Shown here piece by piece: positions 43,752-63,138 of a stretch of DNA of 64,000 nucleotides. Position 1 is the first letter of the stretch. Each line of letters begins with the position of its first letter. Position numbers and translations under genes: made by a program. This stretch comes from Pseudomonadota bacterium (GTDB taxonomy: Bacteria > Bdellovibrionota_F > JAHFAK01 > JBDREC01): assembly GCA_043820105.1 (NCBI GenBank), contig JBDREC010000103.1, forward strand, positions 15,405 through 79,404, given 5' to 3'. The notes beneath the pieces were generated by a model. It was not told the origin of the DNA and searched no databases. It saw only the letters and a list, made by a program, of their open reading frames with translations.

Positions 43752-44557
43752 TTAGATTCTGCCTAAAAAGTGGGCAAAATAAATTGTAAAAAACTTCAGG
43801 ATTTTAAATGTCTTTATTTAAAAAACAATTTCATTATAAGTTAGATTATATTTTCCGCAATAATATTTATAGCAAAAAAGGCTGGAATATTACCTGTTTC
43901 AGCCCTCAATATCCACAAGCTAAACCAAGACGCTTTATATTAAAAGAAATCGCAGTAAAATAAAGCTGCAATCGAAAATTTAATTTCCCACGATATCTAC
44001 ATCTGCAAAAACCGTATCCTCTTTTCAATGCTGATATCGTTCCCTCAATCGCATTTCTATTTTTCATCTCTTCTTTATACTCATCTGTCTTCATCAACTT
44101 TCTTGCTTCATCATGATCGACTACTCTCTGTCGCCAGACTGATAACAATTGATAACTAAAACCTGCATATTCCAGGTCAAGCTCTAATGCAATTTTCCAG
44201 TCTAATCTAAATATCAGATTTTGAATCGTTTGCCTGTCAGGAAGCTTTTCCAGAAACTGTAATATTGTTACACACATTAATAACCTCGGTGACACTGGTG
44301 GTCTTCCACCTTCTTTATACATCTGTTCGAAATCAGTATCTAATATTTTGGGAAATATAAATTCATGACATACCTTCACATGATCTCTGATTTCTGGAAA
44401 CACATTTAACATGATACCCGCCTTGAATAATGATTGTTGATTGTACTTTGATAAGTCCTTTGGCATCTATATTATATAAGCATTATCTGCACTTTGTAAA
44501 GATCTTGAGCTTAATTATTTGCTTAATATTTTAGCCCACTTTTTAGGCAGAATCTAA
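43752..44557. mobile_element. Internally deleted IS5/IS1182-like element (approx 806 bp) with perfect 24-bp terminal inverted repeats
   Basis: TTAGATTCTGCCTAAAAAGTGGGC at 43752-43775 is the exact reverse complement of 44534-44557; encloses a transposase ORF lacking the catalytic core. Confidence 0.75.
43906..44466 (-). pseudogene. Truncated transposase: IS5/IS1182-like N-terminal domain fused to C-terminal tail, DDE core missing
   Basis: N-terminal GRPPVSPRLLMCVTILQFL ... (DUF772-like) joined to C-terminal AIEGTISALKRGYGFCRCRYRG ... NIKRL; only 186 aa. Confidence 0.6.
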
Positions 44558-45589: not shown

Positions 45590-46582
45590 ATGCCTAGACC
45601 TAAAAGAATTGAATATGAAGGTGCTTGGTATCACGTCATGAATAGAGGTGCTAGCAAGAAAAACATTTTTCATTCACATGATGACAGGAACTTTTTTTTA
45701 AAAATGCTAGCGCATGTCAGTGATCAATGGAATTTTCAGACACATGCCTATTGTTTAATGACAAATCATTATCATTTGCTTGTGCATACACCAAATCTTG
45801 GCTTGTCAGAAAGTATGCGACATCTTTCTTCAATTTATACAATGAGATATAATAAGAAATATAAAAGGGATGGAGCATTGTTTAGAGGTAGATTCAAATC
45901 AATATTGTTAGATAGGGATGATTGTGCATCAGCAATATTAAGATACATTCACCAAAATCCCGTAAAGGCAGGTTTATGTAAAAATGTAGAATCATACAAG
46001 TGGTCTAGTCACAGAGCATATTTAAATGAAAAAAATAAACCGTCATTTCTATATACAGATGAGATATTGAAAGATTTTGCAAAGATTAGTTCTAAGGCAA
46101 GGCGAAAATTGCATGAGTTTGTGACTGGAAGAGAATCTAAAGATTTTATTAACTCTATAGAAGGGCCAAGACCTGTATCTGTAATGGGATCAGAGGGTTT
46201 TAGAGATTGGATAAAAGATAATTATTTATATAAAGTAAACAAAGATAAGTTAATTTCAACAGCAAGAAGTAATAAGCGCCCTGAAATTATACCAAAGCAA
46301 ATGTTATCATATGTTAGCTCTGAATTCAGTGTCAGTAAAAAAAGCATTATGGAAAATAAGTCTGGATCCATTGCAAATATACCAAGACTGACATATTTAT
46401 ATTTATTGCATAAAATTGCAGGTTTTACACATAATGAAATCGCTGAGATAAGCAAATCAGGAAACAAAGCTTCAGTAGCTCAAAACATTTATCGTTTTTC
46501 AAGGAGATTGGAAGAGGATGAATGTTTGGGCGAAAGGATTAAAGGTATGAAGGGGAATTTGTTGTCGAATGTCAAGGCCTGA
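45590..46582 (+). CDS. REP-associated tyrosine transposase (IS200-like HuH Y1 transposase) with C-terminal HTH-like extension
   Basis: YHVMNRG N-terminus, HuH motif HYHLLVH, catalytic Tyr context RYIHQNPVKAGL; flanked by inverted REP-like repeats. Confidence 0.7.
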   Translation: MPRPKRIEYEGAWYHVMNRGASKKNIFHSHDDRNFFLKMLAHVSDQWNFQTHAYCLMTNHYHLLVHTPNLGLSESMRHLSSIYTMRYNKKYKRDGALFRGRFKSILLDRDDCASAILRYIHQNPVKAGLCKNVESYKWSSHRAYLNEKNKPSFLYTDEILKDFAKISSKARRKLHEFVTGRESKDFINSIEGPRPVSVMGSEGFRDWIKDNYLYKVNKDKLISTARSNKRPEIIPKQMLSYVSSEFSVSKKSIMENKSGSIANIPRLTYLYLLHKIAGFTHNEIAEISKSGNKASVAQNIYRFSRRLEEDECLGERIKGMKGNLLSNVKA

Positions 46583-49260: not shown

Positions 49261-49338
49261 TTTGAATTGTTTTATATTATTATTTATTCCAATTAATTAT
49301 AACAATTTAAACTTAAGTTTATGCATATGGAGCTAATA

Positions 49339-50748
49339 ATGACCAAAAAAGAACTGGATTTAATTTTACATGAAGGGGAAAACTATAAAATCGAGTTCAA
49401 AGAAAATGTTAACTCTGATTTGTCAAAAGAAATGGTTGCTATGGCAAATTCATCTGGAGGTAGGATATTTATTGGGATTAATGATAAAAACGAAGTAATA
49501 GGTGTGAAAGCAACAAATGCTTTGTTATCTAAAATTCAGAATATGGCCCAGGATTGTGATCCCTCAATTATTATCAACATTAATACTTATAAAAATATTT
49601 TAATTATTAATGTTAAAGAAGGTTTAAATAAACCATATCGCTGTAGTAAAGGTTTTTATACTAGGAATGGTTCAAATTCACAGAAAATGACAACCAGAGA
49701 GATAACTGAATTTGTGCAAGCAGAAGGTAATGTTAGGTTTGATGAAAAGCTTCGGGAAGATATAAATATAAGTAAAAAAATTAAAAAAGAACTGCTTAAT
49801 CATTATTTGCAATTAGCAAACATTAATAAGACAATGGATGATGAATTTATACTAGAAAATTTAGGAGTACTGGAGCAAAAGAATAAGAAATCATATCTTA
49901 ATAATGCTGGGCTATTGTTTTTTTGCGATTCTACTAACCCACATCTTCATTATGCAAATATTACTTGTGCTTTATACAAGGGCAGTGAAAAGCTAAATGT
50001 TTTGGACAGAAAAGATTTTTCATCTGATATAATTTCTAATATCGAAGATACCATGTTGTTTTTGAAAAAGCATTTAAATCTTAGATATGAAATAACATCA
50101 TTAAGAAGAAAGGAAATTCTTGAGCTGCCTGAAGTTGCTTTGCGTGAAGCAGTAGTCAACGCTGCTTGCCACAGAGACTATTTTGAAAAAGGTGCCAATA
50201 TTATGGTTGAGATATTTGATGATAGGGTCCAAATAACTAACCCTGGTGGATTGCCTAAAGGCTTGTTACCAGAAAAATTTGGAACCAGAAGCGTATCAAG
50301 AAATCCTTTAATCACTTCATTGTTCCATCGTGTTGGCTACATTGAAAAAATGGGAACAGGTATAGGTAGAATAAGAAAGTCCCTCAAGGAATCAGGTAAT
50401 TCAGAAGCTGTATTTGAATATGACAGTTTTTTTTCAGTGATATTTAAAAGATCTATCTTAGAAAATGGAGCTAGTTCAGACATACAAGTTACCGGACAAG
50501 TCACCGGACAAGTTCCCGAACATGTCACCAAACTACTTAGTATATGCAAAGGAGAGTTGTCTCGTAGTGAATTGCAGGATATATTAAAATTAAAGCACAG
50601 AGAGAACTTTGTGAATTTATATCTAAACCCAGCATTGGAATCTGCTTTTATCGAAATGACAATTCCAGGCAAACCAAGATCAAGCAAACAAAAATACCGC
50701 TTAACAAAAAAAGGGAAAGATTATTTAAAGAAACTGCCTGAAAATTAA
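49339..50748 (+). CDS. Schlafen/AlbA_2-like domain protein with HATPase_c_4-like domain and C-terminal wHTH (COG2865-type regulator)
   Basis: N-terminal KELDLILHEGENYKIEFKE ... ANSSGGRIFIGIND; central REAVVNAACHRDYF ... NPGGLP ... SRNPLI ... MGTGIGRI; VTGQVTGQV linker repeat; start at ATG 49339 with GGAG RBS. Confidence 0.6.
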   Translation: MTKKELDLILHEGENYKIEFKENVNSDLSKEMVAMANSSGGRIFIGINDKNEVIGVKATNALLSKIQNMAQDCDPSIIININTYKNILIINVKEGLNKPYRCSKGFYTRNGSNSQKMTTREITEFVQAEGNVRFDEKLREDINISKKIKKELLNHYLQLANINKTMDDEFILENLGVLEQKNKKSYLNNAGLLFFCDSTNPHLHYANITCALYKGSEKLNVLDRKDFSSDIISNIEDTMLFLKKHLNLRYEITSLRRKEILELPEVALREAVVNAACHRDYFEKGANIMVEIFDDRVQITNPGGLPKGLLPEKFGTRSVSRNPLITSLFHRVGYIEKMGTGIGRIRKSLKESGNSEAVFEYDSFFSVIFKRSILENGASSDIQVTGQVTGQVPEHVTKLLSICKGELSRSELQDILKLKHRENFVNLYLNPALESAFIEMTIPGKPRSSKQKYRLTKKGKDYLKKLPEN

Positions 50749-52413: not shown

Positions 52414-52980
52414 TTCATTGAGATTTAATAAAATATATAAAAATCCAAATTGTTTAAAAACATCGGTTTGCTAGCCGCTTACATTGGAAATAAAATAAAT
52501 ATATACAATGGAAAATTAAATTTTTTTTTTAACACCTGAGCTTATATGGTGGTTGTGATGGTATTGGCCCATATAGGATAACTGAAGACGATGGGAAATG
52601 TGCCTAATAAGCCAAGGGATTTTATAAAGGTTCTTCTGGAAAAGGAATCTGCCATAAGATTTTCCTATTTATGATTATTTGCATATTCAGGAAAATGCAC
52701 TATAACAGATGGTTGTGACAGGTTAGGGCATTTGCATGAAGAAAATTTTAGAACACCTGATATCGAAGATTATACTTTAATATCAAAATTAGCAAGTTAT
52801 GGGTGCAATGAAAACATGATTTCATGATTTGAAATAACAATTATGTGTAAGGTTTGCAAAAAGATGACTACAAATAAGAAAATTTGGTATTTCAAATCAT
52901 ATCAATTCAAATAGATAAAATATTACTTCATTTTCTTATTCAAAATTAATAAATCACAGATATTTATATAATTGATAAAC

Positions 52981-54804
52981 TTAATTAATTCTTTTTAAAT
53001 ATACATGTACTTGTTCATAAATTTCCTTATAAGTTCCATCTTTCTTCAACCAGTTATTTGTATCAGTAGATATCCAATCTTCTTTTTTATATTCTTTTTT
53101 TCCTTCCTTTTTTACATCTAATCTATTTTGTAATGAATTGATAATTTTTAAAATATAGTTATCAAAATCTTCTCCAATCTCCAAGCAATACTGTGAATTT
53201 TTTGAAATATATTTTTGACCGTGTAATGTTTTAAGTTTATCTTTTAAATTATCAATAGTTGAAATACTATTAATATCATTTTTGAAAAAATAGATTGCAC
53301 TCAAAGCAAGTATTACATCATTTATATAATTATTTTGAAGAATTTCATACTTCATAATATTATTGTTTTTTATCTGATTAATCTTTTCTGATATTCTATA
53401 AGATAGCATTAATTTATGAAATTGGTCTTCTTCATTTATTGTCATGCTAAAAATATTATCATAACAATGATCTGAAAAAACAAGTTTATATCTTCCTTTT
53501 GTAGATATTGGTATTTGGAGAAAAAAAGACATAAAAGATATTCCAATATCTATGTTCTTAATCTTTAAATGCAAAGGACTTTTACCAAAAGGATTACGGT
53601 ACTTGCTTTTTTCAACAGTTGCCCATTCACCGTCCTTTTTGTCATAAAAGATTCCAACATCATCAAGGAATTTAAAAATTTTAACTTGTATTCTATCACC
53701 TGAATGTAGATCTCTTGTGCTAATAGCATTTTGACTATTACTGGCAACAGCAATATCCTTTGAAATTTTTGAAATTTTTGATTTTTTATTTATTTTTGTA
53801 AGTCGCATTAGAATCTGTACATTGTCAGGCAATTCGTTTACAATTCTTGTTAATGTCTTTGTAGTCTGTCCACCATTAACAATTTGAAAATTAGTAATCT
53901 GTAGTTTATTTTCATTTAATATCTTAAAGTCTTCACATATTGAATTGATACCATTGTTTAATATCCAAAAATTGGAACGACTACCTTTTGAGTATTCGTG
54001 TTTAATTTTTGAATTGATTTCATTTTCTCCTTTATAATAACGGACATTTAAAGCTAAAATCATCTCTTTATGTTTTTCTATTATAGGCCTCAAGGAGTTC
54101 GCTTTTATACTCGTAACAATAGTTTCAATTTCGGTTTTATCGTTATCATCATAAAAGTTTGAACATTTTTTAAAATATTCTTTTTCTACAATATCTATGA
54201 TTATTTCATTTTTAGGCATTTCAGTATCATCATAAAGCATTTCAAGACGGTTATAGTCAAAAAAATCAGGATAAAAATTAATTCCTTTATCTTCATAATT
54301 AGTGAATAATGCCATTATGTCAGTTTTGATATTGGTAGAATCAAAGGTGTTGTCTATATAATAAAAGTAAATATTATAATTATTATTTTCAATATTTTGA
54401 GGTGTTAATAAAGTATTAATTTCGTTATCAATTATTTTTTGTAACTTTTTGTTCGGTTTTTGCTCATCATAATTTATTTTTAAAAGCCGATCTATAAATT
54501 TTTTATTTTTTCTAATCTCATCTGTATTTAATAGATTATTATTTGAATATTTGAATTGAAATACATATATATCATGGTTATTTTGATTAGTAAAAATAGC
54601 ATCATTCCCTAAATCATTTGACATATCAACAATGTGCTCTTTAATGAACTCATTAATGTCTATGCCATCGTAGTCAAATTCAATTATTTTCCTGCTAAAA
54701 CACTCTTTAATAATAAAATGACCAAATGCTGTACCATCATTAGGATAATTAAAGGTTTCTCTTAAATCTGAAACCTGATCTTTTATTCTTTCATAAAAAC
54801 TCAT
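52981..54804 (-). CDS. AIPR-like abortive-infection family protein (putative)
   Basis: N-terminal restriction-endonuclease-like region (YDGIDI ... GNDAIF ... IYVFQFKYS) and central FQIVNGGQTTKTL motif as recalled for AIPR; start set at ATG 54804 with AGGAGA RBS. Confidence 0.45.
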   Translation of the reverse strand: MSFYERIKDQVSDLRETFNYPNDGTAFGHFIIKECFSRKIIEFDYDGIDINEFIKEHIVDMSNDLGNDAIFTNQNNHDIYVFQFKYSNNNLLNTDEIRKNKKFIDRLLKINYDEQKPNKKLQKIIDNEINTLLTPQNIENNNYNIYFYYIDNTFDSTNIKTDIMALFTNYEDKGINFYPDFFDYNRLEMLYDDTEMPKNEIIIDIVEKEYFKKCSNFYDDNDKTEIETIVTSIKANSLRPIIEKHKEMILALNVRYYKGENEINSKIKHEYSKGSRSNFWILNNGINSICEDFKILNENKLQITNFQIVNGGQTTKTLTRIVNELPDNVQILMRLTKINKKSKISKISKDIAVASNSQNAISTRDLHSGDRIQVKIFKFLDDVGIFYDKKDGEWATVEKSKYRNPFGKSPLHLKIKNIDIGISFMSFFLQIPISTKGRYKLVFSDHCYDNIFSMTINEEDQFHKLMLSYRISEKINQIKNNNIMKYEILQNNYINDVILALSAIYFFKNDINSISTIDNLKDKLKTLHGQKYISKNSQYCLEIGEDFDNYILKIINSLQNRLDVKKEGKKEYKKEDWISTDTNNWLKKDGTYKEIYEQVHVYLKRIN

Positions 54805-54903
54805 AATAAATCTCCTATTTAAAAATTCAATTGTATCTATCATGTCATGAATTAATAGTCAAAATTCACTCAAGCTAATTAAAAAATTTGGTTCTCGTCC
54901 GTC

Positions 54904-55506
54904 TTACGATAACAACTTCGCGATAGATGGAACTATAAGATCGTGACTTAAACCTTGAGTATGCCGGGCGGAATGATCCAGATCAGGCATCTGGTTTTTT
55001 ATACATTTTGATTCCGTGTGATAATAAATATTATTCAATGCACCTTCGTGTATAAAACGCTTTTTAAGATTTGCTATATTTTTTTTATTTGAACCTCCCC
55101 AGACATACCATCTCCATGGAAAGACTCTATTTTCAGAATCACATTTGGGAGGTTTATCATAATTCGACAGTTCGATAATTGCTTCATCTAGTGAGGGATT
55201 ACATAAGTAAAACAAATTCTGAACCTGAATATATGAATTTCTGGAATATGTTTTGTTAGAATATTCATAGGCTTTTTCAACGATTGAACGAACATTCGGT
55301 AATAGTTTGTCATTTGACAGTTTAATTTTTTGAATTCCCGATATTGACAGATCAGTGGGTTTTGCAGAACCCGGGTTCTTTCCTGCAATTGCTCCAATGC
55401 ATGTATCGTTTGCTTCAGGTTTTGCAATAGATTCAAGATATATTCTTGTATCAAACCTGAAAATATTGGAGCCATCCTTTTTAAATATTGCCCAATAGAA
55501 AGCCAT
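54904..55506 (-). CDS. DUF1643-like protein
   Basis: CIGAIAGKNPGSAKPTD, IQVQNLFYL and WYVWGG resemble the DUF1643 pattern recalled from memory; GAGGTG RBS. Confidence 0.4.
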   Translation of the reverse strand: MAFYWAIFKKDGSNIFRFDTRIYLESIAKPEANDTCIGAIAGKNPGSAKPTDLSISGIQKIKLSNDKLLPNVRSIVEKAYEYSNKTYSRNSYIQVQNLFYLCNPSLDEAIIELSNYDKPPKCDSENRVFPWRWYVWGGSNKKNIANLKKRFIHEGALNNIYYHTESKCIKNQMPDLDHSARHTQGLSHDLIVPSIAKLLS

Positions 55507-55872: not shown

Positions 55873-56142
55873 TTAGCTATTTGCAAATCTTAATCCCATA
55901 AAAGGTATTTCTTCAATTTCAAGATCCTTCCATCCAGTATATCCAAAAACCATATCTGATAATTTTCCCTTTATACGGTATTCATCATAGACTTTTTTTC
56001 CTTCTGTGCTGGCGAAGATAACCTTACCTTTTATCACTATATTTTTGTTGGAATCTTTCTTTTTTTCCTTAAAATTATCCAGCAAAACAAAAGTATTAGG
56101 ATACATTTTTTTAATTTCATCCCATGTCATTAGTTCTTCCAT
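55873..56142 (-). CDS. Hypothetical small protein (89 aa)
   Basis: ORF only. Confidence 0.3.
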   Translation of the reverse strand: MEELMTWDEIKKMYPNTFVLLDNFKEKKKDSNKNIVIKGKVIFASTEGKKVYDEYRIKGKLSDMVFGYTGWKDLEIEEIPFMGLRFANS

Positions 56143-56306: not shown

Positions 56307-58727
56307 ATGATTAACAAAGGAAAACTGGTGAATATGATGGATACTAAATATGGTTTTTCACATTTGCATTTGCATACCCAATATAGTCTGCTGGATTCAA
56401 CAATAAAAATAAGTGATCTTATAGAAACAGTTAAAAAACTAGACATGGACTCTGTAGCAATTACAGACCATGGAAATCTTATGGGAGCGATTGAATTCTA
56501 CAAGGAAGCAAAAAAACAGGATATAAAAGCAATTATAGGCTCTGAGGTTTATATTGCACAAACTGGGCGTTTTGATAAAAGTACAAAACTGCATCATCAT
56601 CTTGTTCTGCTCGCGGAAAACAATACTGGGTACATTAATCTCATAAAACTTGTCAGCATAGGATATACAGAAGGATATTATAATGTCCCAAGAATAGACA
56701 ACGAAGTTTTAAGGCAACATTCTGAAGGACTAATAGGACTATCTGGTTGTATGGGTGGAGAAATTCCGCATTACATTTTAAGAGATGAACTTTCCACAGC
56801 AATTAAAGCTGCAATGGAATATAAAACAATTTTTGGAGCTGAAGCATTTTATCTTGAACTTCTGGAAACAGGATTGTCAGGTCAGAAAAAAGTAAATGAC
56901 GGACTTATTCATATATCAAAAGAATGTAACATTCCCCTTGTTGCTACTAACAATTGTCATTATTTAAAAAAAGAAGAGCATCAGGTTCATGCAGTTTTAT
57001 CGTGTATTCAAGCAGGGAAAACATTAGATGAAATCGAAATTGAAACTGATCAGCTATATCTGAAATCAGCACATGAAATGCTGGACCTTTTCAAGGATCA
57101 TCCTGAAGCAATCCAAAACACAAAGAAAATTGCAGACAGATGCAACGTAGAAATTGAACTTGGCAGGAAACAGCTGCCTCATTTTCAGACACCGGAAAAA
57201 ATTTCTCATGCAGCTTTTCTTGAAAAACTTGCCTTTGAAGGATTGGATATGAGATTTGACACAATTATAAGCGATAGGAACATATCAAAATACACTAAGA
57301 GATTGAAACATGAACTTGAAGTTATAAATAACAAAGGATTTGCTGCATATTTCCTTGTGGTCTGGGATTATGTAAAATATGCCATGGAAGCAGGGATTCC
57401 AGTGGGACCTGGAAGAGGTTCCTCTCCAGGTTGTCTTGTTGCTTATTTGCTAGGAATAACAGACATTGATCCGGTAAGATACAGCCTGCATTTTGAAAGG
57501 TTTCTGAATCCTGACAGGGATATATTGCCTGATTTTGATATAGACTTCGGCTACGATCAAAGGGATGAAGTTATAGAATACATTACAAAAAAGTGTGGGA
57601 AAAACAAGGTATCCAAAATAATAACATATGTAACTTTCAGAGCAAGAAGTGTCATCAGGGATGTAGGAAGAGCTCTTAATATTCCATATGACGAGGTTGA
57701 TAAGGTAGTAAAGCTTTTATCTGAATTTTTTGATATGAGTCTTGAAAGAGCATTAGAGCTTAAACCAGAACTTAATAAAATACATGAAAAAAACAAAATA
57801 TACCAGGATCTAATTAGGTTTTCATTCACATTAGAGGGACTTAAGCGTCACACAGGTGTTCATACATGTGGCATTGTAATATCTCCAAAAGCACTTACCC
57901 AATATATTCCATTATATTGCAACACATCTGGTGATCAGATAAGTCAGTTTACAAAAGATGAACTGGAAGATATAGGACTTGTAAAATTTGATATTCTTGG
58001 TCTTAAAGCATTAACCGTTTTGGATAATGCCTGTAAACTGATAAATAAAAATGGTGATGAAATATTTGATATAAAACAAATACTACATGATGATCCAAAA
58101 GTATTTGAACTGCTTACATCAGGAAACACATCAGGTGTTTTCCAGTTTGAAAGTTGTGGAATTAAGGATATCATAAAAAAGATAAAACCAGACTGTTTTG
58201 AAGATATAATTGCAGCTTACGCATTATACAGACCAGGTCCATTAGCCAGCGGCATGACAGAAGATTTTTGGAAAAGAAAACATGGACTCATTGCAAGCAA
58301 TTATCCACATCCAAAGCTTGAAGATATTTTAAAAGTAACATATGGAATTATTGTCTACCAGGAACAGATAATGGAAGCAGCTTCAAGAATTGCAGGATTG
58401 CCTTTTCAACAGGCGGATATTTTACGCAGAATAATGGGCAAGAAGAAAGCCAATCAAATAGAAAAGCAAAAGGAAATCTTCGTAGAAGGTGCCAGGAAAA
58501 ATGATATATCATATGAAAAAGCAAATGAGATATTTGATCTTTTAGAATATTATTCAGGATACGGTTTCAACAAGGCACATGCTGCAGCTTATGCATTGAT
58601 CTCATACAGATGCGCATATCTTAAATGTCATTATCCTATGGAATATTCTGCAGCCTTAATATCTTCAGAAAAAGATAACCCTGAAAAGGCATTGAGATAT
58701 CTTAAGGAATGGAAAAGCATGAATTAA
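56307..58727 (+). CDS. dnaE: DNA polymerase III alpha subunit (DnaE), C-terminally truncated: PHP domain and polymerase core only (806 aa)
   Basis: PHP motif FSHLHLHTQYSLLD; polymerase-core GYGFNKAHAAAYALISYRCAYLKCHYP; ends about 45 residues after this motif, where a full-length DnaE would continue for several hundred residues. Confidence 0.7.
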   Translation: MINKGKLVNMMDTKYGFSHLHLHTQYSLLDSTIKISDLIETVKKLDMDSVAITDHGNLMGAIEFYKEAKKQDIKAIIGSEVYIAQTGRFDKSTKLHHHLVLLAENNTGYINLIKLVSIGYTEGYYNVPRIDNEVLRQHSEGLIGLSGCMGGEIPHYILRDELSTAIKAAMEYKTIFGAEAFYLELLETGLSGQKKVNDGLIHISKECNIPLVATNNCHYLKKEEHQVHAVLSCIQAGKTLDEIEIETDQLYLKSAHEMLDLFKDHPEAIQNTKKIADRCNVEIELGRKQLPHFQTPEKISHAAFLEKLAFEGLDMRFDTIISDRNISKYTKRLKHELEVINNKGFAAYFLVVWDYVKYAMEAGIPVGPGRGSSPGCLVAYLLGITDIDPVRYSLHFERFLNPDRDILPDFDIDFGYDQRDEVIEYITKKCGKNKVSKIITYVTFRARSVIRDVGRALNIPYDEVDKVVKLLSEFFDMSLERALELKPELNKIHEKNKIYQDLIRFSFTLEGLKRHTGVHTCGIVISPKALTQYIPLYCNTSGDQISQFTKDELEDIGLVKFDILGLKALTVLDNACKLINKNGDEIFDIKQILHDDPKVFELLTSGNTSGVFQFESCGIKDIIKKIKPDCFEDIIAAYALYRPGPLASGMTEDFWKRKHGLIASNYPHPKLEDILKVTYGIIVYQEQIMEAASRIAGLPFQQADILRRIMGKKKANQIEKQKEIFVEGARKNDISYEKANEIFDLLEYYSGYGFNKAHAAAYALISYRCAYLKCHYPMEYSAALISSEKDNPEKALRYLKEWKSMN

Positions 58728-58778: not shown

Positions 58779-60287
58779 TCAAGGAAGGGCACAGATGTTC
58801 TCCAGCTCCTCCAAAAGTTTCACCATCGCCAATGTATCCTGACCACAATAAACTTTAAGAGCCTTGTAGATCTTTTCCTTTATTTCTAATTCAGTTGAAT
58901 CTGAGATCATCTCTAAATATTTAAGTGAGGCTATTCCTCCTTCTCCGATTTCAAGATCGTGGTAATTCATGTTGGGAATAAAAGCAGGGAGCACTTTTTT
59001 AATGGATGCTGAACCCTCCTGATTTGGATGATATAAGAAGCGTTGTTTAAATGGGATCAATAGGTCTTTCATTTTTTGGTTAATTTCTAAAAGCTCCTTT
59101 TTATATTCAGGAAAAGCAGCGGCAAGCGATTTGTTGATAGTAGCTTCAAAAGGTTTATTGTAAACTATGACGGTTCCAGCACATTTGCCATTTTTACAAC
59201 AGGATGAAACAAGCATTTTGACCAAACCTGCTCTTGGATCAGAAAATTCATTGTGCAAATATTCAAGGTGTTCAAGTGTGCCACCCTTTTTTTTCTGGAT
59301 ATGCAGAGAAAACTGAAAGGGAACCTGTCCATAGGGTTTTGTTCCATCAAAAAGCGGAATAGCAGGAAAAATAGTTTCATAATCAAGAAAATATAGGGGA
59401 TATTTTAGCAGTTTTAAAAAATCGTCTATTTTTGCTTTATCCTTATAAATTTCACCATTTTGATAACTTTCAATATCAATTCTTTGTTTGCTGCTAAGAT
59501 CAAGGTCTAAAGGGATATCTCCGACCTTAATAATATTTTGATCTAAAAGTTTTTTAAGCTTATTTTTATTTCTTTTAAATATATTATAGACTGAATATTT
59601 TGGGATGCTACTCCAGCAGTAGTCAATAAAATCACAGTCAAAAGGATTGTTACAATGAGAACCCACAGGAATTTCAAACTCTTCAGACTGGGATAATATT
59701 TTCAAAAACTTCTGCACATTTCTTTTTACTTTAGCTTGTCCTTTAATTGCAGCTTCTGTTACATCTTCAAGAACAAAAAATTCAGAAAGATCAATTTCTC
59801 CATTCTTAATAAATTTATTATTTATATGCATTAATATTGATTTATTGATTTTATAGCCCGCGTTTTCAAAAACATACCGTTGAAAAGCAACATCATCAAG
59901 GTGATATTTTGCAACATGAGTGGATTGCTTAACTTCAATCATGTCCCAGCCCTGACCATCAGCTGCCTTTCTAAGAATATCAATCCTGCAAAACAAGCCC
60001 TCTGTGGTTGAAGCAGTTGCCTCAAAAATAATAGCCGAGCCGCCTGCTATATTTTTTTTCGTGGAATCAATAGCACCAGGAATATTTTTGTAATCTTCAG
60101 TAATCTCAATTCCAGCTTTAAAATATTTCTGTGCGAGTTTCCCAACTTCATGTCCCTGATCAAAAGTATGCTGTAAGGATAAAGGTATTTCTTCAGGTAA
60201 AAGATCTTTTCTGTGTTTATGAAGCCAAAGTCTGAGAGGACATTGGCAGCCTAAAAGATAGTTCGATTTTGAAAGTAAAAGTTGCAT
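58779..60287 (-). CDS. Predicted nuclease: Cas4-like PD-(D/E)xK domain with Fe-S Cys ligands fused to DUF2779-like (DnaQ-like) exonuclease domain
   Basis: N-terminal GCQCPLRLWL, RIDIL ... DMIEVKQS, C-terminal CNNPFDCDFIDYC Cys cluster; second half YFLDYETI ... VPFQFSLH. Confidence 0.5.
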   Translation of the reverse strand: MQLLLSKSNYLLGCQCPLRLWLHKHRKDLLPEEIPLSLQHTFDQGHEVGKLAQKYFKAGIEITEDYKNIPGAIDSTKKNIAGGSAIIFEATASTTEGLFCRIDILRKAADGQGWDMIEVKQSTHVAKYHLDDVAFQRYVFENAGYKINKSILMHINNKFIKNGEIDLSEFFVLEDVTEAAIKGQAKVKRNVQKFLKILSQSEEFEIPVGSHCNNPFDCDFIDYCWSSIPKYSVYNIFKRNKNKLKKLLDQNIIKVGDIPLDLDLSSKQRIDIESYQNGEIYKDKAKIDDFLKLLKYPLYFLDYETIFPAIPLFDGTKPYGQVPFQFSLHIQKKKGGTLEHLEYLHNEFSDPRAGLVKMLVSSCCKNGKCAGTVIVYNKPFEATINKSLAAAFPEYKKELLEINQKMKDLLIPFKQRFLYHPNQEGSASIKKVLPAFIPNMNYHDLEIGEGGIASLKYLEMISDSTELEIKEKIYKALKVYCGQDTLAMVKLLEELENICALP

Positions 60288-60727: not shown

Positions 60728-62083
60728 ATGAACAAAAAAGAACTAGACTTCATTATTAAACAAGGTGAAGGTCAGCATATAGAGTTTAAAGAATCTTTTG
60801 ATAAATCTCTTGTTAAAGAAATAATTGCTTTTGCAAATGCTCAAGGGGGCAGGATTTATTTAGGGATAAATGACAAAGGACTAATAAAAGAAATTAATAT
60901 TACAAATTCCTTGAAATCTCAAATTCAGGATATTGCTAAAAATTGTGATCCTTCAATTCTTGTCAATTTAAGTGCATATAAGAATATATTAATTGTTAAT
61001 GTTCATGAAGGAAATGACAAACCTTATTCTTGTTCAAGTGGATTCTATTTAAGGATGGGAGCAAATACACAAAAGTTAACGCGAGATGAAATCATGCAAT
61101 TTGCCATTTCCGAAGGAAAAAAACTGTTTGATGAGCAAATTTGTGATGATTTTGTTTTTTTAGATGATTTTGATGAAGATAAACTGAAAAGTTACTTAAA
61201 AGAAGCAAAAATTGAAAGCGAGCTTGATAATAAATCAATCCTTTTAAACCTTGGTGTTGCAAAACTTATAAATAAGCAATTCAAATTTACGAATGCTGGG
61301 ATACTATTTTTTGCAAAAAAACCTTCAAAATATTTTATGACAACAAAGGTAGTTTGTGCTGAATATGCAACAAACGAAAAAGTTAAAATATTAGATCGTA
61401 AGATTTATGATGAGGGTATTTTAAAAAACCTAAAAAATGCAATTAACTTTATAAGTAAAAGAATTAAAATAGAATTTGAAATTAAATCTGCTAAAAGAAA
61501 GGAAATCCCACAATTTCCAGAGGAAGCTTTTAGAGAAGCAGTTGTTAATGCCATAATGCATAGAGATTATTTTGATAAAACCTCTGAAATTATGATTGAA
61601 TGTTACAGGAATAAAATTGTTGTTTATAATCCCGGAGGACTTGTCAAATGGTTAAGACCCGAAGAATTTGGAAAAATTAGTAAACTTAGAAACCCTTTAA
61701 TTGCTTCACTTTTATCAAGAACAATATATGCTGAAAAAATGGGAACTGGCATAAAAAGAATGAATAAGGCTATGATCAAAGCCGGATTGAAAGAGCCTGC
61801 TTATGAATATTATGACACTTCTTTTTATACACAATTTGATGATAAAAATATCGAAAAAAGAAAAGGGAAAAGTTCGGTGAAAAGTTCGGTAAAAAGTACG
61901 GTGAAAAGTTCGGTGAAAATTCTTAATCTTATTAAAAAAGATGCATATATTACAATTCCAGAAATCGCTAAAACCCTAAATTTAACAACAAGAGCAATTG
62001 AAAAGCAAATAGCAAACTTAAAAAAAACAGGCAAAATAAAAAGAATTGGCCCTGACAAAGGCGGATATTGGGAGGAATTATGA
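60728..62083 (+). CDS. Schlafen/AlbA_2-like domain protein with HATPase_c_4-like domain and wHTH (paralogue 2)
   Basis: KELDFIIKQGEGQHIEFKE ... ANAQGGRIYLGIND; REAVVNAIMHRDYF ... NPGGL ... RNPLIA ... MGTGIKRM; KSSVKSSVKSTVKSSVK linker from a 15-bp tandem repeat. Confidence 0.6.
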   Translation: MNKKELDFIIKQGEGQHIEFKESFDKSLVKEIIAFANAQGGRIYLGINDKGLIKEINITNSLKSQIQDIAKNCDPSILVNLSAYKNILIVNVHEGNDKPYSCSSGFYLRMGANTQKLTRDEIMQFAISEGKKLFDEQICDDFVFLDDFDEDKLKSYLKEAKIESELDNKSILLNLGVAKLINKQFKFTNAGILFFAKKPSKYFMTTKVVCAEYATNEKVKILDRKIYDEGILKNLKNAINFISKRIKIEFEIKSAKRKEIPQFPEEAFREAVVNAIMHRDYFDKTSEIMIECYRNKIVVYNPGGLVKWLRPEEFGKISKLRNPLIASLLSRTIYAEKMGTGIKRMNKAMIKAGLKEPAYEYYDTSFYTQFDDKNIEKRKGKSSVKSSVKSTVKSSVKILNLIKKDAYITIPEIAKTLNLTTRAIEKQIANLKKTGKIKRIGPDKGGYWEEL

Positions 62084-63138
62084 AGGCCACCAAAGAATCC
62101 AATCCTACCTATCAGAATGCAATTACCATAGTTGAGATATTTCTTTATTTAAAGCAGTTTCCAAGAGGTGTTTTATCATCTCAAATACAAGAGGAATATT
62201 ATCAGGATAAGGATGACAGGACCTTTCATAGAGTTAAAAAAGCCCTGGAAGATTTTCTTTTTGATCCTCAAGGTGATAAGGTATTCTTTTTTGAAGGCGA
62301 GGGTAAAAATCAGACTATACGCTTGCATCCAAAGCATTTTAATACCTCTGATGTAATGGAATGGCATCTCTTTGGTTTAATGATGTCCAATGTAATGATG
62401 ACCAACATCAAGGGTGATGTGGATTCCTCGCCTGATATTAAAAGCGGGGTGCTGCAATTGCGTGATCTTATTGTTAGTAATCTTGAAGCTGATTTTTATA
62501 AGAGTAATGCAGATGGTGAAATAAGCGAAGTTAGAGAAAATCTATTAAATAAAATTAAGAAGAAATATTACTGCAAGAAAGTTGGGCAGAAGATTTATGG
62601 CAAAGATGACAAATCAACTGAGATCCTTGATAAAATTACACAGGCTTTATATAAAGAAAACAAGCTAAAGATTCATAAGTATAAAAATGAAAAAAAGAAA
62701 GACTGGGTATTTTCACCTTATACACTTTTATCATATAATGATGCCTTTTATGTAATGGGAAAGCTTGCAAAGGGCTATATGCTTACCCTTGCTATTGACC
62801 GGATTGATGAGCTTGAAGTTTTGAAGAAAACCTTTAATTATCCCAAAGACTATCATCCCTCAGAGATTCTCAATAAAGGCTTTGGAGTAGGGGACGTGAA
62901 TCAGGAGGCTGTTAAAGTTGAGCTCTTGTTTGACCAGGCTGTTTCCTATCTAATCACAGAACGTTTTTGGCATCATTCACAAATGATTACAGAAAAAGAA
63001 GATGGTTCTGTTTTACTGGAAATGGAAGTGCCTGACAGCTTTGAGTTAAGAAAGTTTGTTTTGAGTTTTGGGTCAAATGTGAAAGCATTAGCGCCAGATT
63101 CGCTTGGACAATTTATTAAAGAAGATAAGAGCAAATAG
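62080..63138 (+). CDS. WYL-domain transcriptional regulator (wHTH-WYL-WCX; BrxR/CapW/PafBC-like)
   Basis: N-terminal wHTH, central WVFSPYTLLSYNDAFYVMGK WYL-like segment, C-terminal WCX-like region; start ATG 62080 overlaps upstream stop as ATGA. Confidence 0.5.
   Translation: MKATKESNPTYQNAITIVEIFLYLKQFPRGVLSSQIQEEYYQDKDDRTFHRVKKALEDFLFDPQGDKVFFFEGEGKNQTIRLHPKHFNTSDVMEWHLFGLMMSNVMMTNIKGDVDSSPDIKSGVLQLRDLIVSNLEADFYKSNADGEISEVRENLLNKIKKKYYCKKVGQKIYGKDDKSTEILDKITQALYKENKLKIHKYKNEKKKDWVFSPYTLLSYNDAFYVMGKLAKGYMLTLAIDRIDELEVLKKTFNYPKDYHPSEILNKGFGVGDVNQEAVKVELLFDQAVSYLITERFWHHSQMITEKEDGSVLLEMEVPDSFELRKFVLSFGSNVKALAPDSLGQFIKEDKSK

Follow-up and report, generated by a model that had tools for sequence, protein, structure and literature searches.

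We analysed a 64,000-nucleotide stretch of DNA (hereafter the window) from contig JBDREC010000103.1 of a metagenome-assembled genome (MAG) labelled 'Pseudomonadota bacterium', in which an earlier note, made from the sequence alone, had described a DUF1643-like gene followed by an AIPR-like gene as a two-gene module. The region contains two minus-strand open reading frames (ORFs), at 52981..54843 (620 amino acids, aa) and 54904..55506 (200 aa). Because the alignments of close homologues of the large protein all begin at residue 14 of the 620-aa ORF, and because NCBI annotates a 607-aa 'AIPR family protein' (P0121), we place the true start of the large gene at the ATG at 54804, which gives a gene for 607 aa at 52981..54804 in a frame that is open to 54843. 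The intergenic spacer is therefore 99 nt (54805-54903), and the earlier description of co-oriented minus-strand genes 99 nt apart is borne out with this start. The ribosome-binding sites described for each gene are also present, as Shine-Dalgarno-like sequences at both starts: AAGAGGTGA before 55506, and AGGAG, which lies in the spacer, before 54804. NCBI labels the 200-aa protein 'hypothetical protein ABIA04_15295'. Both proteins have full-length homologues that make up conserved families, which indicates that the two are real coding genes.

Profile matches place the large gene in a known family of single-gene defence systems, of which it is an ordinary member that already has an annotation. 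Its protein matched the Pfam family AIPR (PF10592) at E 2.8e-32 with 113.1 bits (gathering score 25), over profile positions 2-292 of 308; the match covers residues 264-540 of the 620-aa ORF (53224..54054, minus strand). It also matched nearly the whole PADLOC AbiU model (E 1.3e-33, 57-509 of 537) and PHROG 1841, 'Abi alpha-like' (4e-42). More than 160 homologues were found, and the 120 listed were 56-69% identical and mostly full length at ~600 aa. Hosts included Anaerolineales, Bacteroidales, Marinimicrobia, and an archaeal MAG, and the pattern is that of a horizontally spread and strongly constrained subfamily. The NGGQTT motif that the earlier note had read lies within the AIPR domain (53860..53877, minus strand), and N310, G311, G312, Q313, and T314 were invariant in 22 aligned homologues. 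Both the AIPR call and the motif stand.

In the same 22-homologue alignment, D60, D68, Q83, and K85 (607-aa numbering) of the N-terminal region were also invariant. The AlphaFold2 (AF2) model of the protein (predicted local distance difference test score, pLDDT, 78.9) starts a strand at D68 (68-73) and places Q83-x-K85 in a second strand (78-84), with flanking helices. D68...Q83-x-K85 on two consecutive strands would correspond to the core arrangement of PD-(D/E)xK nucleases, and we mark ~residues 50-150 (54355..54657, minus strand) as the restriction-endonuclease-like core. The restriction-endonuclease-like N-terminus of the earlier note agrees with the invariant residues and their modeled positions; the nuclease identity itself is a prediction. 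A profile search of Protein Data Bank (PDB) sequences returned only noise and found no solved relative of the protein.

The protein resembles AbiUi, of the Lactococcus lactis system AbiU, in its AIPR, AbiU, and PHROG 1841 matches over most of its length, its size of ~600 aa, its predicted nuclease-like N-terminus, and its organization as a single gene. It differs in being very distant from AbiUi in sequence, with a similarity known at the level of hidden Markov models (HMMs) only, and in sitting within the tight environmental subfamily described above. A 2026 FEMS review regards AbiU as a system of one component, with AbiUi sufficing for resistance and delaying phage transcription, and reports that the model of AbiUi resembles the FokI nuclease (PMC13064643). 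The lactococcal locus has a second gene, AbiUii, which encodes a HEPN protein and lowers activity (PMC13064643). An AIPR domain is also shared with MzaE of the MZA system (NCBIfam NF041935, 37.8 bits, residues 186-392). We rejected MzaE as the identity of the window protein, as the score is far below the equivalog cut-off of 1050, no MzaA-D-like neighbors are present, and the adjacent genes are unrelated.

The 200-aa protein (54904..55506, minus strand) had no match in Pfam (even at E<=10), NCBIfam, or PHROGs and gave only noise with PADLOC; REase_II was discarded as an identity since its match was at noise level. The protein nevertheless has a family. Searches at E<=1e-3 returned 139 clusters, nearly all of ~200 aa, 40-53% identical, and none annotated by Pfam, and an exhaustive profile search extended the family to 309 cluster representatives from many phyla. 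The family alignment had 19 invariant positions, which form the motifs FRFDTRIY, GKNPGSA, GDKLLP, QVxNLFYLC, WGG, and ARHTQG. In GKNPGSA (residues 42-48; 55363..55383, minus strand), K43, N44, G46, and A48 were invariant and P45 was nearly so. Two members were natural fusions: P0286 (624 aa) joins the 200-aa domain to a C-terminal NOV_C domain (DUF3883, nuclease-like), and P0266 (456 aa) joins it to a region with 'IGLNPAL', possibly a second domain resembling uracil-DNA glycosylase (UDG).

DUF1643 (PF07799) was the only Pfam family matched by more than one of 41 aligned family members (3/41, best E 0.0042). A distant member, P0384, which the family profile found at E 2.3e-17, scored 27.3 bits with DUF1643 against a gathering score of 22.5, and 9/10 members of its clade matched PF07799 (best E 1.9e-8). 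Alignment of the 200-aa family profile with that of the P0384 clade using hhalign gave a probability of 99.7% (E 9.3e-26, 136 columns). The profile comparisons identify the 200-aa protein as a remote DUF1643 relative that lies outside the family as Pfam defines it. The DUF1643 call of the earlier note is right as remote homology, but the protein is not a DUF1643 member that a Pfam search can recover. Both groups share N-P-G/S, N-L-F, and W-G motifs, a C-terminal H(P), and a sporadic occurrence, often as cargo of mobile elements. They differ in that the Pfam model fails to recover the window protein and 38/41 family members, and in that the 200-aa family, at ~200 aa, has an extra N-terminal beta-hairpin (FRFDTRIY) and HTQG in place of HP. 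The literature mentions DUF1643 only as cargo, carried by staphylococcal cassette chromosome (SCC) elements, where it sits next to the UDG inhibitor SAUGI, by an ISL3 element, and by phages, and ascribes no known function to it. The 200-aa family itself was absent from phage genomes (0/50,697), occurred on one IMG/VR contig, and was rare on plasmids.

Three features led us to liken the 200-aa protein to the active-site layout of the UDG superfamily (families 2 and 4, UdgX, and SMUG2, with Brig1 and Brig2 as defence members), because their positions match. GKNPG (residues 42-46) directly follows the core strand 35-42, the invariant N97 ends the core strand 91-97, and the invariant H182 precedes the last helix, where the wider family has 'HP'. 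Both superfamily hallmarks are present, namely motif A (G-x-[DEN]-P-G) after the first core strand and a C-terminal His motif B, and GKNPG has the G-x-N-P-G form that MUG/TDG enzymes carry at the motif A position. We infer that GKNPG, N97, and H182 may be the catalytic equivalents of the UDG active site. Foldseek found no match to the model of the protein at E<=0.001 in PDB or BFVD, and searches of PDB sequences with two profiles of the family returned only noise. Kinship with the antiviral glycosylase Brig1 was rejected: hhalign against the Brig1 sequence, taken from the supplement of the Brig1 paper, gave a probability of 0.35% and aligned only eight columns (GxNPG), the sole aligned segment, in which Brig1 reads GLNPG and the 200-aa protein GKNPG. 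We place the 200-aa gene in a sister clade of DUF1643 that carries no annotation, and predict a UDG-like alpha/beta fold for its protein.

The earlier note had joined these two genes as a module and had named homologues that never occur together as the finding that would count against it. Outside the window, the genes did not occur together in any locus we compared, and the module claim fails. We collected 146 other loci with the small gene, made up of 62 genome loci, 80 metagenome loci, and contigs of individual homologues, and none had an AIPR gene near it (0/146). A tblastn search with the window AIPR protein found 0 AIPR genes in the 62 genome loci, and an AIPR HMM built from 60 homologues and applied at E<=1 found 0 in 64 loci (L001-L064) and 0 in the 80 metagenome loci. 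In the reciprocal comparison, tblastn and HMM searches of 12 loci (seven distinct contexts) that carry AIPR homologues 65-68% identical to the window protein found no member of the 200-aa family (0/12). The gene upstream of AIPR in those loci was Uma2, BrnT/BrnA, BrxC/BrxD, a glyoxalase, DUF6508, or a 501-aa protein of no assigned family. No neighbor was conserved across the 12 loci, as is consistent with a single-gene organization. On two different contigs (L065:2692-8089 and L074:1854-7068) close AIPR homologues occupied the same slot between Fer4_20/Pyr_redox_2 and DHO_dh genes with different immediate upstream cargo, Uma2 vs BrnT/BrnA, which suggests that the slot is a small integration hotspot.

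The neighbors of the 200-aa gene in the 62 genome loci were highly heterogeneous. Among 90 co-oriented close neighbors, no Pfam family occurred more than four times (MFS four times; DUF2779, IS200, and GNAT twice each), and AIPR was not among the 25 most frequent families listed. In the PADLOC census of the same neighbors, defence matches were few, scattered, and confined to a small minority, and AbiU was not among the 25 most frequent families listed. Individual neighbors included a Schlafen helicase, a subtilase, EF-G, an AAA-ankyrin protein, an aldehyde dehydrogenase, an amidase, and PucC. Some homologues lay in mobile or variable settings: in a prophage accessory region between ImmA/HTH and serine recombinase genes (L063), beside IS91/integrase/Fic/HepT-MNT genes in Desulfitobacterium, beside SSB/primase/DnaN genes in Clostridium ljungdahlii, and adjoining a type I restriction-modification (R-M) system on an Arcobacter plasmid. 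We also rejected other candidates for a fixed partner. BLASTP clustering of the neighbors gave, as its largest clusters, only synteny inside Congregibacter/Halieaceae, and tblastn with the 89-aa PDC-M08A-like protein, a 227-aa membrane protein, an 81-aa protein, and the Schlafen-like gene of the window found no match in the homologue loci.

The two genes also differed in composition. The AIPR gene had a GC content of 24.4% (18.4% at third codon positions, GC3) and the 200-aa gene 34.5% (GC3 27.4%). The composition of the 200-aa gene is like that of the adjacent dnaE and DUF2779 genes, and the DUF2779 gene has an identical GC content.

One family did recur beside the 200-aa gene. DUF2779 occurred near it in 8/146 loci (~5%), among them L013, L051, L062, L081, L114, L131, and L136, and also in the window, and it was the only family to recur, on the same strand in every case. 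In the window, the DUF2779 gene (58779..60287, minus strand; Pfam PF11074, 6.5e-41) shares the strand of the 200-aa gene, 3.27 kb upstream of it. The copies in the loci named were at L013:8687-10156, L051:6817-8319, L062:5182-6645, L081:3361-4857, L136:1349-2866, L114:1864-2499, and L131:2055-2384. Order and spacing varied, from 4 nt upstream (L136) or 77 nt (L013) to one gene between (L081, L051), and as far as one gene away downstream. The linked 200-aa copies were spread across the family, with most pairs 33-53% identical and at least five lineages represented. Eight copies in ~1.25 Mb of flanking sequence is far above our own crude estimate, made without a computed background rate, of <<1 for a normally single-copy gene. 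DUF2779 is an uncharacterized family predicted to be a fusion of a Cas4-like PD-(D/E)xK nuclease and an RNase-H-like 3'-5' exonuclease (PMC3985635, PMC13621843). We treat a functional glycosylase-nuclease link between the two proteins as a lead, not a result.

The surrounding region contains insertion sequence (IS) remnants, two Schlafen AlbA_2 genes, a WYL regulator, an orphan PDC-M08A-like gene, and a truncated dnaE. We consider it mobile and variable because transposase sequences lie within a few kb: a short DDE transposase fragment of 186 aa (DDE_Tnp_1_6/DUF772; 43906-44466, minus strand) and a 330-aa protein that contains an IS200-like Y1 transposase domain (45590-46582, plus strand). Paralogous Schlafen AlbA_2/HATPase_c_4 proteins flank the region at 49321-50748 and 60728-62083 (both plus strand); one of the two has a Fic-like C-terminal domain, the other a winged helix-turn-helix. 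Part of the first also matches the PADLOC pAgo-associated and Aga SIR2 models, and the gene of the second overlaps a WYL/WCX regulator gene (62068-63138, plus strand). The 89-aa gene at 55873-56142 (minus strand) matched PADLOC PDC-M08A (E 2.6e-12) and, weakly, PHROG 21859. A complete PDC-M08 candidate system was rejected, since no neighbor, including the 200-aa gene, matches a B model, and the 89-aa gene is apparently an orphan. The DnaE-like ORF at 56307-58727 (plus strand) has PHP, polymerase III alpha, and finger domains and breaks off after 806 aa, inside a conserved segment, with the convergent DUF2779 gene following directly. The HhH/OB C-terminus is missing, with no continuation in the six frames of the window; the ORF may represent a dnaE copy that was truncated or interrupted, or may stem from an assembly join.

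Downstream of the AIPR gene lies an AT-rich gap of 567 bp (52414..52980). The length of this gap agrees with the earlier note, which had called it repeat-containing and non-coding; the short AT-rich matches within it are at chance level only, and it holds a 37-aa ORF (52542-52655, minus strand). That ORF begins MADSFSRRTFIKSLGLLG, resembling a twin-arginine (Tat) signal, with the Tat-signal-like sequence SRRTFIKSLGLLG, and may be the remnant of a gene for a Tat-exported protein. The only non-trivial repeat in the gap is a 17-nt inverted repeat (52824-52840 / 52884-52900, 94% complementary, with a 43-nt loop) downstream of the AIPR stop, which lacks a T-run terminator signature. Rfam had no match in the gap, and scans for repeats, Rfam families, and tRNAs in and around the gaps gave nothing significant.

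We think it probable that these are two unrelated genes, each able to stand alone, that are adjacent by chance, the AIPR gene being likely a separate insertion. The family assignments, the solitary organization elsewhere, and the composition difference are observations; all of the biochemical activities proposed here are predictions. The two genes lie head to tail in a low-GC MAG, within a variable stretch where mobile-element genes and genes of defence types are abundant. Of the two, the downstream one would encode a complete single-gene abortive-infection protein, with an N-terminal PD-(D/E)xK-like nuclease core, a central AIPR domain carrying NGGQTT, and a helical C-terminus. By analogy with AbiUi, this protein may detect an infection and then interfere with the nucleic acid or the transcription of the phage, needing no partner protein. 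The 200-aa protein would be a base-flipping DNA glycosylase-type enzyme, its base unspecified, and the AIPR gene is most likely a more recent AT-rich insertion beside a gene of host-like composition. Several points weigh against chance adjacency. The genes are co-oriented and only 99 nt apart, and we found neither a terminator-like site nor a convincing promoter in the spacer, where the only promoter-like site overlaps the AIPR start codon; such sites are at background frequency in AT-rich DNA (38 found vs 32 expected). Read-through or co-transcription may thus occur in this genome; a shared transcript would not by itself turn the two genes into a system. Further, the nearest relative of the 200-aa protein shares only 50-54% identity with it, so that none of the loci compared is truly orthologous, and the AIPR HMM came from one subfamily, so a very divergent AIPR beside some homologue could escape it.

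One rival reading is a genuine, lineage-specific two-gene system, in which the DUF1643-like protein would mark or create lesions in phage DNA for the AIPR nuclease to cut, or would modulate AIPR as AbiUii does AbiUi. The same strand, the 99-nt gap, and the lack of a predicted terminator fit it, the lactococcal AbiU locus does have an activity-altering second gene (PMC13064643), and the fusion of the 200-aa domain to nuclease-like NOV_C in P0286 means that a link to a nuclease is not absurd. We nevertheless judge it very unlikely, given no co-occurrence in 146 + 12 loci, the solitary state of close AIPR homologues, the 10 GC points between the genes, and the fact that AbiUii is a HEPN protein unrelated to DUF1643 (PMC13064643). 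The 200-aa protein might instead act alone as an antiviral DNA glycosylase similar to Brig1 and Brig2 that removes modified bases from phage DNA, its gene lying beside AIPR simply since defence genes cluster. There is precedent, as UDG-superfamily proteins have been shown to protect against phages whose cytosines (Brig1, PMC11078745) or thymidines (Brig2, bioRxiv 10.1101/2025.10.29.685425) are modified. This reading would suit the defence-type genes of the window (AIPR, PDC-M08A-like, two Schlafen AlbA_2, and WYL) and the homologues found in the prophage accessory region, by the type I R-M system, and by IS91/integrase/Fic/HepT-MNT. We regard it as unlikely, because the protein has no detectable kinship with Brig1 past the eight-residue motif, few of the 90 neighbors match defence models while many are housekeeping genes, and the family is absent from the phage genomes, rare on plasmids, and host-like in GC here. 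We also think it rather unlikely that DUF2779 is the real partner of the 200-aa gene where it has any, with the UDG-like protein excising a base, DUF2779 processing the resulting site or end, and AIPR an unrelated later arrival. The constant strand, the recurrence in at least five lineages, the identical GC in the window, and the nuclease domain predictions speak for such a partnership; yet only ~5% of loci show it, many contigs being too short to judge, most homologues have no DUF2779 within 8 kb, and in the window the two are separated by a dnaE fragment on the opposite strand and by a small gene. A DUF2779 partnership is compatible with chance adjacency of the 200-aa and AIPR genes as far as the module is concerned. 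Its fullest form, that the 200-aa family comprises new UDG-fold DNA glycosylases pairing recurrently with DUF2779 (Cas4-like + DnaQ-like) for base excision and resection on foreign or modified DNA or at a specific lesion, with AIPR a bystander, we put forward speculatively and think improbable.

Had the module held, it would have meant a new two-gene defence system, and the evidence here keeps a false module out of defence-system catalogues. The AIPR subfamily is well conserved and widely transferred and acts as a single gene that drops into small variable slots; because it has no solved relative, it would be a convenient candidate with which to begin mechanistic or structural work on AIPR. 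Of everything at the locus, only the DUF2779 link merits following up. The 200-aa family would link DUF1643 to the UDG superfamily, and the pairing of a glycosylase with a nuclease is a testable hypothesis for both DUF1643 and DUF2779.

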